27,866 nt of DNA from a virus. The first letter of the stretch is position 1; the number at the start of each line of letters is the position of its first letter. Below, in pieces: positions 19,060 to 23,286 of this stretch. The notes below the pieces were generated by a model. That model saw nothing but the letters and a program-made list of their open reading frames with translations. It made no database searches and was not told the origin of the DNA. The stretch lies in the UHGV virus genome UHGV-0161508. One strand, given 5' to 3'. Both the position numbers and the translations under genes were made by a program.

Positions 19060-19710
19060 ATGAAAACTCAATTGATGGGAGAGCGCATTCGCGCTCGGAG
19101 AAAAGAACTCAAGATCAGGCAGGCCGCACTTGGAAAGATGGTCGGCGTGTCTAATGTTGCCATATCTCAGTGGGAACGCTCTGAGACAGAGCCAAATGGA
19201 GAGAATCTTCTCGCCCTGGCTAATGCGTTGAAGTGTTCCCCTGACTATCTGATGAAAGGAGAGGAAAGTCTTTCAAACATTGCCTATCACAGTAGGCATG
19301 ATCCAAGAGGGTCATACCCTCTGATTAGCTGGGTGAGCGCAGGATGCTGGATGGAAGCTGTAGAACCATATCATAAGCGTGCAATAGATAACTGGTACGA
19401 TACAACCGTAGACTGTTCAGAAGATTCGTTTTGGTTGGACGTGAAGGGAGACTCAATGACGGCTCCGGCCGGTCTCAGTATCCCTGAAGGAATGATAATA
19501 CTCGTCGATCCTGAAGTAGAGCCGCGTAACGGGAAACTGGTAGTTGCAAAGCTCGAAGGAGAAAACGAGGCAACTTTCAAGAAGTTAGTTATTGATGCAG
19601 GCAGGAAGTTTCTAAAACCACTTAACCCACAATATCCGATGATCGAGATCAACGGAAACTGCAAAATCATCGGCGTAGTTGTCGATGCAAAACTAGCAAA
19701 CCTTCCATAA
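19060..19710 (+). CDS. c2: Prophage repressor C2 (lambda CI analogue), P22-type
   Basis: 216-aa ORF MKTQLMGERIRARRKELKIRQAALGKMVGVSNVAISQWERSETEPNGENLLAL... matches recalled P22 c2 including the C-terminal LexA-like autocleavage domain; no SD before the ATG, consistent with a near-leaderless pRM transcript. Confidence 0.95.
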   Translation: MKTQLMGERIRARRKELKIRQAALGKMVGVSNVAISQWERSETEPNGENLLALANALKCSPDYLMKGEESLSNIAYHSRHDPRGSYPLISWVSAGCWMEAVEPYHKRAIDNWYDTTVDCSEDSFWLDVKGDSMTAPAGLSIPEGMIILVDPEVEPRNGKLVVAKLEGENEATFKKLVIDAGRKFLKPLNPQYPMIEINGNCKIIGVVVDAKLANLP

Positions 19711-19733
19711 AGGGGCATTCGCCCCTTTTTTTA
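19709..19733 (+). terminator. Intrinsic terminator immediately after c2
   Basis: AGGGGC-ATTC-GCCCCT followed by TTTTTTT. Confidence 0.75.
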
Positions 19734-19775: not shown

Positions 19776-19829
19776 ATTTAAGTTTTCTTCAAAAATACTC
19801 TTGACCATTAATTAAAGAGATCTTAAATT
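19776..19829 (+). promoter_or_regulatory. OL operators and pL promoter
   Basis: -35 TTGACC (19801-19806), 17-bp spacer, -10 TAAATT (19824-19829). Operator ATTAAAGAGATCTTAAAT (19811-19828) and degenerate ATTTAAGTTTTCTTCAAA (19776-19793) share the OR half-site. Confidence 0.65.
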
Positions 19830-19874
19830 TAAGCCATCAGCAGGACGCTGGTAGCCAAACGGAACAGATTGGCA

Positions 19875-19917
19875 GGCTCTTTAACATTGATGGGATTGTC
19901 CCGCCGAAATGCGGGAA
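19875..19917 (+). promoter_or_regulatory. nutL: nutL (boxA + boxB)
   Basis: boxA GGCTCTTTAACA (19875-19886), 12-nt spacer, boxB hairpin TCCCGCCGAAATGCGGGAA (19899-19917), identical to the nutR boxB. Confidence 0.7.
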
Positions 19918-20274
19918 CTGAGTTTAACCAAACAGGAGGTGCCGTAATGGTGCACTAACGCGGTTAGACCGCAGCCGAAAGGCAATGCAGCAGTAATGAT
20001 GCTGCCCCGAGTCGCGTAATGGCGAGCAGGTTTAGCAGACCGATGTGAGGGTAAATAAGGGAACATGCTCCGGAAAGGCAGCGCGAATGCCAGACGCGCA
20101 CCGGTTATCAGCGGCTAATAAGCGACAGAGACTCAAGGGCATGAGCGCGCTCACTGCGAGAGTGTGAGTCAAAGAGTAGTTGGCTTTGGGGTGACGTGAA
20201 GTGCAGCTGCACGCCGGCAGCCGGAAGATAAGCACCCGGCGCGTCACCGCCAAAGTCAATCATCGGAGGTCAAC

Positions 20275-20574
20275 ATGACAGTAGTCATTACATATCTGGC
20301 TGACGATAACGCCAGAAATCGCCGCAGAGCACGCAGACAGGCTCAACGTGAACAGGCAATGCAAGAGCAGCGACTGGCGCGAAAAATTGCGCTAAAGCTC
20401 TCTGGTTGCGTCAGAGCAGATAAAGCAGCATCACTCGGAAGCCTTCGCTGCAAGAAGGCAGAAGAAGTCGAGCGTAAACAGAACCGTATTTACTACCGCA
20501 AGCCACGCAGTGAAATGGGTGTGACTTGTGTTGGTCGCCAGAAAATGAAATTAGGCAGCAAACCACTTATTTGA
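20275..20574 (+). CDS. N: Antitermination protein N (arginine-rich-motif family, not P22 gp24-type)
   Basis: 99 aa; N-terminal arginine-rich motif DNARNRRRARRQAQREQ; first gene after pL/nutL; GGAGG 5 nt before the ATG. Confidence 0.8.
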   Translation: MTVVITYLADDNARNRRRARRQAQREQAMQEQRLARKIALKLSGCVRADKAASLGSLRCKKAEEVERKQNRIYYRKPRSEMGVTCVGRQKMKLGSKPLI

Positions 20575-20582
20575 GGTGAGAT

Positions 20583-21053
20583 ATGACAAAATCATGGATC
20601 GTACCTTTTCCTGAATCAGAAACTGAACATGATGGAATGCCTGTTTTCTGGAGATTCCAGGCGACAGTTGAAGAAGATGGAATCAAAATATTCGCACTTC
20701 AATATATAGCTTTTCATCAGACAGAGCATTATGCATGGTTGGTTCCTGCGCATTGGATTGTTAATTTTAAACCAGCACCAAATCAGTGGTTACAGGAATG
20801 GAAACAAAAGAGAAATAGATATGCAATTAAGAAAGTAGCAAAAAATGCAGAAAGATCTTTTGCATTCCCAACGAAGAAACTTGCCATTGAAAGTTTATTG
20901 CGCCGGAAGAAATACCATTTAATGAGAATCAAACAAGATTTGGCTGTTGTATCAACTCTTGTTGATGGGATGAAGAATATTGATACATCAACACCAGATA
21001 TTGAATATAACTTTGGACACAACCAAGAAACAGAAAACTGGGTGTTTTATTAG
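20583..21053 (+). CDS. Hypothetical protein (156 aa), AT-rich moron between N and cIII
   Basis: ORF MTKSWIVPFPESETEHDGMPVFWRFQATVEEDG...; GGTGAG 4 nt before the ATG; visibly lower G+C than flanking genes; followed by a hairpin and a terminator. No family recognised. Confidence 0.6.
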   Translation: MTKSWIVPFPESETEHDGMPVFWRFQATVEEDGIKIFALQYIAFHQTEHYAWLVPAHWIVNFKPAPNQWLQEWKQKRNRYAIKKVAKNAERSFAFPTKKLAIESLLRRKKYHLMRIKQDLAVVSTLVDGMKNIDTSTPDIEYNFGHNQETENWVFY

Positions 21054-21067
21054 TACGAATAAGCACT

Positions 21068-21095
21068 GTGTATTCATTCCAACGAGTGAATACAC
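21068..21095 (+). promoter_or_regulatory. Perfect 9-bp inverted repeat (GTGTATTCA-N10-TGAATACAC) downstream of the moron
   Basis: Seen directly; not followed by a U-tract, so more likely an RNA processing or protein-binding element than a terminator. Confidence 0.4.
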
Positions 21096-21157
21096 GGAGC
21101 AATGTCGCTCGTAACTAAACAGGAGCCGACTTGTTCTGATTATTGGAAATCTTCTTT

Positions 21158-21181
21158 GCCCTCCAGTGTGAGGGCTTTTTT
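21158..21181 (+). terminator. Intrinsic terminator (tL1-like) between moron and cIII
   Basis: GCCCTC-CAGTGT-GAGGGC followed by TTTTTT. Confidence 0.75.
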
Positions 21182-21247
21182 ATATGCATACCAATAACGC
21201 TTCACTTGAGGCGTTTTCGTTATGCAATCAAATATAAGGAGTTACCC

Positions 21248-21382
21248 ATGATGCATTTTCAGCTCGCGGGTAGCGGCGTCATGTCCGCTTTCTACCCGCA
21301 CGAATCTGAATTATCACGCCGAGTTAAACAATTAATCAGAGCAGCAAAGAAACAACTGGAGGCGTTATGCGCAATGAAATAG
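21248..21382 (+). CDS. cIII: CIII-like protein (FtsH inhibitor, stabiliser of CII); start trimmed
   Basis: MMHFQLAGSGVMSAFYPHESELSRRVKQLIRAAKKQLEALCAMK, 44 aa; central ESELSRRVKQLIRAAKKQL resembles the lambda CIII amphipathic helix ESLLERITRKLRDGWKRL; AAGGAG 6 nt upstream. The track ORF starts upstream of the terminator. Confidence 0.65.
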   Translation: MMHFQLAGSGVMSAFYPHESELSRRVKQLIRAAKKQLEALCAMK

Positions 21383-21912: not shown

Positions 21913-22820
21913 GCAATATCGTTGAATTCGTTAAACAGCAAGAGCAGTTATTCTGCGGAGCATTGACTGAACAGACGGTGACATGGGCTAAGGAAAGCCA
22001 GTTTGCAATTCAGTATTTCCAGAAAAATGATTACCTGGCTAAAACGGCACTGGCAAATCCAACCAGCGCACAGAACGCCATCATCAATGTTGCGGCGATC
22101 GGCATCACCTTAAACCCGGCCAGCAAACTGGCTTATCTGGTTCCTCGCGACGGCATGGTGTGCCTTGATATCAGTTATATGGGATTGCTCCATATTGCAA
22201 TGGAGTCTGGTGTTATCTCATGGGGTCAGGCAAAACTTGTTCATGCTAACGATACCTATGAGTCAAACGGGCTTGATAAAGCACCAACCCATAAATACAA
22301 CGCCTTCGGTGATCGTGGTGATATCGTTGGCGTTTACTGCACAGTTAAGACGCCAGCAGGTGATTATCTAACGGAAGAGATGAGTCTGGCTGAAATTGAG
22401 GCTGTAAGGAAAACAAGCAAGGCGGCATTCAGCGATAAAGGACCATGGGTAAATCACTGGAATGAGATGGCGCGAAAGACGGTCGTAAAGCGTGCAAGCA
22501 AGTATTGGCCTAAGGCATCACGTCTTGATAGTGCTATTCACGTACTAAACGAAGAAGAAGGTGTGTGGACTGAACCAGTTATGCCGCACAAATCAGAGGA
22601 AGATATCCGCGAAGATGAACGGAAACGCCAGCAGGAAATAACGGATAAAGCACAACTTCTTTGTGATGAAATGGCTCAGGCTGAAAACATGGATGATTTG
22701 AAGCGATATTTTGCAGAAGCATATCGCCTGACATCTGGAATGAAATTGCAGCAGAACGTACAAGCCATTTACGCAGAATGCAAAGCGAAACTGGAGGTTG
22801 CCAGTGAGCAAACTATATGA
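21909..22820 (+). CDS. recT: RecT-family single-strand annealing recombinase
   Basis: 303 aa; C-terminal segment GPWVNHWNEMARKTVVKRASKYWP parallels the Rac RecT motif GPWVTHWEEMAKKTAIRRLFKYLP. Confidence 0.85.
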   Translation: MSNIVEFVKQQEQLFCGALTEQTVTWAKESQFAIQYFQKNDYLAKTALANPTSAQNAIINVAAIGITLNPASKLAYLVPRDGMVCLDISYMGLLHIAMESGVISWGQAKLVHANDTYESNGLDKAPTHKYNAFGDRGDIVGVYCTVKTPAGDYLTEEMSLAEIEAVRKTSKAAFSDKGPWVNHWNEMARKTVVKRASKYWPKASRLDSAIHVLNEEEGVWTEPVMPHKSEEDIREDERKRQQEITDKAQLLCDEMAQAENMDDLKRYFAEAYRLTSGMKLQQNVQAIYAECKAKLEVASEQTI

Positions 22821-23286
22821 AATTGCCAATGAATACGCAAAATTGATGGATTCAGATTTAGAACCAGAGATGATTGCTGACACAATAGAAGGCATGGAAG
22901 GAGAATTTACCGATAAAATAGAGCAACTTCTTGCCATTATTAAAAATGAATCTGGTTATGCTGAACGCCTCAAGGAAGAGGCAAAGTCACTGAATGAGCG
23001 AGCCGCAGTAATTCAAAATAAGATTGAGAGCATCAAATCATATATAGCGTCATCGCTTGAAATGGTTGGCAAGAAAAAGATTCGAGCAGGTATTCACCAG
23101 GTAACAATCCGCAAACCGTCAGAAACTGTAGAAATCATCGACTCAAGCGCCCTTCCTCCTGAATACGTTGAGTTTGAAACGACAATTAAAGCCGACAAAC
23201 TGGCAATCAAACACCAACTAAAAGCAGGAATAAATATCCCCGGCGCTCAACTCAAAGTTGGGAAACCTTCACTTCTTATCAAATAA
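22804..23286 (+). CDS. Gp157-like (Sipho_Gp157 family) recombination-module protein, tentative
   Basis: About 160 aa, helical, immediately after recT. Start chosen at GTG 22804 (GGAGG 6 nt upstream); the track starts at TTG 22798. Family call is from memory of the pattern and context. Confidence 0.45.
   Translation: MSKLYEIANEYAKLMDSDLEPEMIADTIEGMEGEFTDKIEQLLAIIKNESGYAERLKEEAKSLNERAAVIQNKIESIKSYIASSLEMVGKKKIRAGIHQVTIRKPSETVEIIDSSALPPEYVEFETTIKADKLAIKHQLKAGINIPGAQLKVGKPSLLIK

Follow-up and report, generated by a model that had tools for sequence, protein, structure and literature searches.

An HK97 gp45 homolog of uncharacterized function is mobile cargo of the early-left operon in a lambdoid prophage

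Ral, SieB, and Nun are dispensable accessory functions directed at restriction or competing phages, and lambdoid phages carry their genes in the early-left operon. Morons, such as HK97 gene 15, come with their own σ70 promoter and their own terminator (Juhala et al. 2000). Here we describe an open reading frame (ORF) of 156 amino acids (aa) in the UHGV virus genome UHGV-0161508, whose whole stretch of 27,866 nucleotides (nt) we call the window. The window is a mosaic lambdoid (P22-like) prophage with its early-left operon drawn on the + strand; the ORF (20583..21053, + strand) is intact, begins with ATG, and lies between the antiterminator gene N and cIII. It is a homolog of HK97 gp45 and a member of PHROG 1636, and is thus a long-annotated gene of uncharacterized function, not a new gene.

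In tblastn comparisons, the ORF protein was 98.1% identical to HK97 gp45 (AAF31125) and 98.7% identical to the product of the 933W ORF ST933Wp19 (NP_049479). The gene directly after N is 98 to 99% identical to it in 933W, phi24B (where it is vb_24B_11c), Min27, BP-4795, and Stx2 phage I, and likewise in many other phages encoding Shiga toxin (Stx1 and Stx2); H-19B carries a homolog that is unannotated. Overall, tblastn found homologs in 85 phage records, and at a coverage of ≥80% the ORF was present in 563 of 5426 complete Escherichia coli genomes. The match of its protein to phrog_1636 extends from end to end (E = 5e-111; residues 1-156 on profile positions 1-156 of 156). In HK97, H-19B, phi367, 933W, and phi24B, the homolog follows N or ral and precedes a conserved non-coding element that we take to be lambda tL2a. 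The preliminary description of this locus presented the gene as undescribed, but it was already annotated as HK97 gp45 and in 933W, phi24B, Min27, and BP-4795, and its function alone is uncharacterized: every source labels the homologs "hypothetical," and our literature searches (HK97 gp45, the accessions, the locus tag vb_24B_11c, and related phrases) found no paper on function.

The ORF is the most AT-rich stretch of the window, which bears out the earlier claim of a compositionally deviant ORF directly after N. Its GC content is 0.359 (0.287 at third codon positions). By comparison, GC content is 0.482 in the whole window, 0.493 in N, 0.47 in cIII, and 0.459 in recT; the ORF value falls in the lowest 0.2% of all 471-nt segments, ∼3.3 standard deviations under the mean. 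GC content of the homolog was also below that of its flanks in 19 of 21 loci. The ORF starts 8 nt past the end of N, whose stop codon overlaps a Shine-Dalgarno sequence (GAGGTGA), and is translationally close-coupled to N.

We found that the ORF is horizontally mobile cargo between N and the tL2a-region element. This slot is hypervariable: it holds sieB, orf28, and ral in lambda; ral and an adjacent ORF homolog in phi367; a Nun-like gene plus a 207-aa ORF in mEp235; a Nun-like gene plus two small ORFs in mEpX1; IS903 in HK022; and sieB plus ORF15 in a Salmonella P22-like phage. The N-to-cIII interval is an accessory slot, as had been suggested; in relatives it is occupied by ral, sieB, nun-like genes, IS903, or ea10. 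Comparison of the ORF protein with slot cargo (Nun, SieB, Ral, orf28, ea10, and P22-type gp17) revealed no relationship.

Alignment with HK97 and 933W places the left recombination junction at 20522..20582 (+ strand). After their own H-19B-type N, HK97 (locus L001, 2505-2562) and 933W (locus L007, 2943-3000) retain 58 nt of non-coding DNA identical to the last ∼17 codons of the 21-type N of the window, which suggests former linkage of the gp45 cargo to a 21-type N and its transfer by recombination within N. On the right, homology among HK97, 933W, H-19B, phi367, and the window stops right after the T-run of the terminator; beyond it lie ea10 in 933W, P22-type gene 17 in H-19B, and a putative tL2b plus cIII in HK97 and the window. 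The N relic on one side and the end of homology on the other indicate that the ORF is cargo between two recombination-prone boundaries. In HK022 (locus L038, 744-1800), the IS903 copy lies immediately next to the tL2a element on its 5′ side, so that the same junction has also accepted an insertion sequence.

Conserved junction sequences on both sides (the N 3′ relic and the tL2a element), together with the absence of any reported phenotype, would suit a nonfunctional or purely selfish ORF that hitchhikes between recombination-prone boundary sequences. We find this scarcely credible: the ratio of nonsynonymous to synonymous substitution rates (dN/dS) is 0.08-0.15 in several independent homolog pairs, including pairs with dS near 0.4 and ∼1.0, and phages infecting several bacterial phyla share the fold. 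The dN/dS values, full-length homologs in Enterobacterales, 88 cluster representatives from a profile search, and a confident AlphaFold2 model (the last three are described below) argue for a real gene. The 18.6-kDa product of the ORF is a genuine protein under selection, of the same kind as HK97 gp45.

The preliminary description grouped a hairpin and a terminator with the ORF; these are actually part of an element of the lambda tL2a region. The conserved non-coding backbone element (124 nt; 21063..21186, + strand) is homologous to lambda 34045-33920, located between ral and ea10 (97.6% identity over 126 nt, collinear). The T-run is followed by a second terminator-like hairpin (21196-21215, within 21186..21224, + strand) just before cIII, 95% identical to lambda 33522-33483, which likewise lies just upstream of cIII. 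We assume that 21063-21186 corresponds to lambda tL2a and 21186-21224 to tL2b. The tL2 cluster (tL2a after ral, tL2b before cIII) is said to go back to work by Luk and Szybalski in 1983 and to the Lambda II map; our literature search for "tL2a" returned unrelated papers only.

The first hairpin of the element (21068..21095, + strand) had been described as a 9-bp perfect repeat, which is right for DNA; as RNA, its stem comprises 12 pairs (9 perfect Watson-Crick pairs, then one G-U, then 2 further pairs) closed by a 4-nt loop. Perfect stems of ≥9 bp are overrepresented in the window, with 12 scored (6 distinct hairpins) versus ∼1.4 expected from Markov-1 simulations; the scan counts nested variants of one hairpin separately, and the simulations were counted likewise. 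A second, imperfect hairpin is predicted by folding at 21096..21137 (+ strand). The intrinsic terminator predicted by consensus scan at 21158..21181 (+ strand; GCCCTC-CAGTGT-GAGGGC plus T6) has a 6-bp GC stem, a 6-nt loop, and a T6 tail, and so fits the consensus as first proposed; the HK97 record annotates the same sequence as a putative terminator. Folding of the element RNA is better than that of shuffled sequence (z = −4.6).

Carriers of this element include lambda, HK022, mEp phages, Stx phages, and Salmonella P22-like phages. It occurs in 325 phage records and 2238 of the 5426 E. coli genomes, most of them without the ORF, so that neither hairpin nor terminator is peculiar to the ORF. 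Judged by sequence, they are an ordinary lambda backbone element separate from it. The preliminary description had also considered that the ORF might turn out to have normal composition, to be present in most relatives, and to belong to a named family; instead, it is AT-rich, it is found in a minority relative to the element (85 versus 325 phage records; 563 versus 2238 genomes), and it has no named family.

Several further features of the element deserve mention. Its parts (hairpin, imperfect hairpin, U-rich spacer, and terminator) are kept at ≥95% identity in the 325 records, with differing flanking genes. This layout resembles that of a 3′-end-derived, Hfq-type small RNA (sRNA); a promoter of its own was not seen, and comparison with Rfam gave no family match at either the gathering or a lax threshold. 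It is not one of the known prophage sRNAs we considered, since the multicopy HnrS sits in late genes and the EcOnc anti-sRNAs lie downstream of PR′. A 31-aa ORF with an ATG start (21102-21197), preceded closely by GGAG, spans the second hairpin and the terminator and is annotated by PHANOTATE in phi367; lying inside the tL2a element, it is probably not a gene. The element was also found (97.6%) at 33840-33965 of MW057783.1 ("Campylobacter phage CJLB-4," 48361 bp), whose coordinates and length are lambda-like; the record seems to be phage lambda and not a Campylobacter phage.

How the ORF is expected to be expressed follows from the arrangement of the operon. A pL-like σ70 promoter (TTGACC-17-TAAATT; 19801..19829, + strand) was found by consensus scan just past the terminator of the repressor gene. 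The same type of scan found no intrinsic terminator between this promoter and 21158, Rho-dependent termination being outside its reach, and no promoter-like site between pL and the ORF, although weak or atypical promoters could escape it; no tL1-like terminator is predicted upstream of the ORF. The tL2a homolog at 21158-21181 is thus the first predicted terminator after pL, which would place the ORF on an N-independent, immediate-early transcript together with N. To judge from these signals, its protein should be synthesized alongside N during the first minutes of infection or induction, with no need for antitermination, and the earlier statement that the gene is "N-antiterminated" is probably wrong. 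It is one of only two proteins predicted on this first transcript in many lambdoid phages, among them the Stx2 phage 933W, phi24B, and the model phage HK97. In a lysogen, the ORF is expected to be silent because pL is repressed and the repressor transcript stops at its own terminator (19709-19728).

Full-length relatives of the protein with 55-85% identity are present in prophages of Pectobacterium, Brenneria, Cronobacter, Rosenbergiella, and Symbiopectobacterium; overall, homologs in Enterobacterales are 55-98% identical over the full length. A profile search of 1.84 billion protein representatives yielded 88 with E values up to 0.001, mostly of 130-160 aa, two of which (P0075 and P0085) look spurious because they are repeat proteins. 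The family pattern is Y-R...E-x-G...E-T...K-[KR]-x-x-K...R-F-A-F-x-T-K-x-x-A...R-K-x-x-Q-L-x-H-L-K-R. All 45 aligned family members belong to PHROG 1636, and many match its sister PHROGs 13631, 25384, and 28215 as well; none of the four has an assigned function. Searches of Pfam, NCBIfam, and PADLOC gave no meaningful match for the ORF protein or for the 45 members, neither the protein nor the family profile retrieved a PDB sequence at E < 0.1, and no profile or structural match was found to known defense systems or solved anti-defense proteins. The earlier finding of no recognizable motif therefore holds for Pfam, NCBIfam, PADLOC, and PDB sequences, and fails for PHROG 1636, which is matched over the full length. 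An AP2/Int-arm DNA-binding domain, suggested by the motif RSFAFPTKKLA, was ruled out (hhalign probability, 1.7%).

With distant relatives in the alignment, AlphaFold2 produced a model with a predicted local distance difference test score of 92 and a predicted template-modeling score of 0.78. It consists of three long antiparallel strands (residues 19-55), two short helices, a short strand (83-86), and a 33-residue helix (98-130). A Foldseek search of predicted viral structures returned 12 matches with E < 0.001, all uncharacterized, from phages of Erwinia, Achromobacter, Delftia, Sinorhizobium, Rhizobium, Tenacibaculum, and Cellulophaga; tblastn with distant family members gave matches in Pseudomonas, Vibrio, and Pantoea phages. 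These fold matches and distant tblastn matches indicate that the family is phage specific, widespread, and not limited to temperate phages. A pattern scan of viral contigs with a narrower alignment found 9 loci. As modeled, the predicted fold is one without a solved relative.

The protein is hydrophilic and has no membrane segment. Its residues 61-120 are strongly basic (17 K/R versus 4 D/E; pI, 10.9), and both ends of the protein are acidic. Positions conserved across the superfamily are few and mostly basic; in the model they map to the short strand and to one face of the long helix. A near-invariant Glu of the superfamily is Gln in the window protein, which argues against catalysis.

We tentatively prefer, while rating it below an even chance, the reading that the ORF encodes a dispensable early binding protein for counter-defense or host takeover. 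Under this proposal, a small β-sheet or barrel would present a strongly basic strand-plus-helix face (K84, K87, R91, R107-K110, H112, and R115 in the model) and act as a non-enzymatic binding protein, with a role comparable to that of Ral or Gam of the same operon by a different mechanism. The face would bind either nucleic acid or an acidic host factor; this mechanism as a whole is the least certain part of our reading. Binding is preferred over enzymatic activity because of the basic segment at 61-120, the mostly basic conserved positions, and the Gln at a near-invariant acidic site. The same predicted β-barrel and basic helix could serve a regulator of the phage's own early program, which would bind RNA polymerase, a Nus factor, Rho, or nascent pL/pR RNA and thereby tune termination, antitermination, or the lysis-lysogeny decision; we regard this as unlikely.

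Gene neighborhoods of distant relatives bear on these proposals. In two metagenomic phages (loci L014 and L036), the homolog is the first gene of an early operon, divergent from a Cro-like gene; this placement, like that at an operon start in Bas81 and NX263 (below), favors early expression. In five distant lineages, the operon of the homolog also contains DNA methyltransferase genes; an Acb2/Tad1-like gene shares the operon in one lineage and a SLOG gene in another. Together with the ral gene adjacent to the homolog in phi367, these neighbors are the basis of the counter-defense idea. The suggestion in the preliminary description of an anti-defense, exclusion, or takeover function is itself a guess, made only from position and neighborhood.

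The homolog lies directly upstream of xis-int, with differing integrase types, in six prophages of Pectobacterium or Brenneria and in two distant metagenomic lineages; in locus L028 and Pseudomonas phage Medea1, int is 1.6-2.2 kb downstream. Such linkage, and the basic character of the protein, would agree with an accessory of site-specific recombination or another early-left DNA transaction, that is, a DNA-binding helper for Xis/Int or for recombinases. We nevertheless think this very unlikely. In E. coli lambdoid phages, the ORF sits beside N, with the whole recombination module between it and xis-int; homologs also occur in phages whose sampled regions show no integrase; and the profile comparison with the Int arm-binding domain described above was negative. 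Moreover, the position before xis in lambda is known as a dumping ground for accessory "ea" genes. A strict, universal link to xis-int was rejected, since the other loci examined, with the exception of L028 and Medea1, did not show it.

Both virulent and temperate phages carry members of the family, a distribution that speaks against a role specific to lysogeny. In Bas81 (locus L011, 4001-5298) and NX263 (locus L010, 4001-5298), the homolog (62-64% identity) is at the start of an operon, directly before a gene for a ParB-HTH/KorB-like protein (HTH, helix-turn-helix), and no lysogeny genes were seen in the sampled regions. The Klebsiella phage VLCpiS10a (locus L009, 3959-5694) has the same two genes with one for a SLOG (YAcAr) protein between them, again with no lysogeny genes in the sampled region; the homolog and the ParB-HTH/KorB-like protein may form a recurring partnership.

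Bas81 and NX263 also speak to whether the ORF protein is a Nun/SieB-like competition factor that blocks or aborts heterologous phages in the lysogen or in the early lytic phase. In its favor, the N-to-tL2a slot of relatives houses the exclusion genes sieB and nun, the composition of the ORF is deviant as in morons, and the ORF is common in E. coli prophages. However, such close homologs in phages whose sampled regions show no lysogeny genes do not fit this idea; nor do the lack of a promoter-like site that could serve a repressed prophage, the termination of the repressor transcript at 19709-19728, and a protein that, unlike SieB, lacks a membrane segment and that resembles neither SieB nor Nun. 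We therefore consider a competition factor rather improbable.

A bolder version of the binding-protein proposal is that the ORF protein is the founder of a fold family (PHROGs 1636, 13631, 25384, and 28215) that is widespread, confined to phages, and without a solved relative, and is a new kind of immediate-early effector, either for counter-defense or as a modulator of host transcription or termination, made with N in 933W, phi24B, and HK97; this strikes us as somewhat doubtful. If it is a counter-defense or host-takeover factor, it would add a new family and could bear on the host range and induction of Shiga-toxin phages; its gene is present in about one-tenth of complete E. coli genomes. 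Given that the gene is already annotated and that the RNA elements are standard lambda backbone, follow-up should address what a known ORFan does and not claim a discovery. The remainder, of moderate interest, is the function of a conserved, predicted immediate-early ORFan whose predicted fold lacks a known relative.

The rest of the early-left region of the window is of familiar type. Upstream, a cI/C2-type repressor gene (S24 plus HTH; 19060-19710, by Pfam) ends at its own strong terminator (19709-19728, by consensus scan). P22-type Cro and CII are encoded on the opposite strand, and Kil and RecT were also recognized by Pfam. Past pL, we read from the sequence a putative nutL (19876..19916, + strand) with a boxA-like GCTCTTTAAC (19876-19885, + strand) and a boxB-like hairpin (19899-19916, + strand) present in both the minimum free energy and centroid folds of the leader. 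This leader, which separates pL from N (19830-20274), is unusually long (∼445 nt) and GC-rich (∼0.55), with no convincing ORF; its remaining ∼350 nt fold somewhat better than shuffles (z = −2.95), and in the matching region of phi367 PHANOTATE calls two ORFs. N (20275..20574, + strand) encodes a 99-aa antiterminator with a phage-21-like C terminus; its weak Pfam N_peptide match is below the cutoff, and a near-identical gene in phi367 is annotated "anti-termination protein N-like." Downstream, cIII (44 aa; 21248..21382, + strand) matches Pfam cIII with E = 2e-30. A Sipho_Gp157 family protein (E = 2e-38) is encoded at 22798-23286, overlapping the end of recT and downstream of it; it is a further early-left accessory gene whose function is poorly known.

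How does this locus compare with known systems? Like ral, sieB, and nun, the ORF is cargo of the early-left slot, but its protein shares no sequence similarity with their products and differs in size and predicted fold. Ral gave no match by blastp or with the family hidden Markov model, and ral is a separate neighbor in phi367; nothing significant was found for SieB or Nun, the best hit being a 14-residue match to lambda SieB at E = 1.7. In the records examined, sieB is on the opposite strand, and its product is a membrane protein, whereas the ORF protein has no membrane feature; Nun has an N-terminal arginine-rich RNA-binding peptide, whereas the basic region of the ORF protein is central and is predicted to form a strand plus helix. 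Morons share with the ORF a patchy presence, a deviant composition, and a terminator on the 3′ side. Unlike morons, the ORF lies within an early operon and is probably not expressed from a repressed prophage; where they have a promoter of their own, our consensus scan found none for the ORF, though a weak or atypical one could escape, and where they have their own terminator, that of the ORF belongs to the backbone and is present without the ORF in most of the 325 records. The lambda tL2 cluster has the same order and orientation within the pL operon as the elements of the window; lambda differs in having ea10 between tL2a and tL2b and tL1 plus sieB/ral upstream, whereas in the window the two elements are adjacent. 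The closest counterparts are HK97 gp45 and the 933W and phi24B genes, which are like the ORF in position after N, in protein sequence (98 to 99% identity over all 156 residues), and in the downstream hairpin and terminator; HK97 and 933W differ from the window only upstream, where they have another type of N and a 58-nt relic N in place of a live N end.
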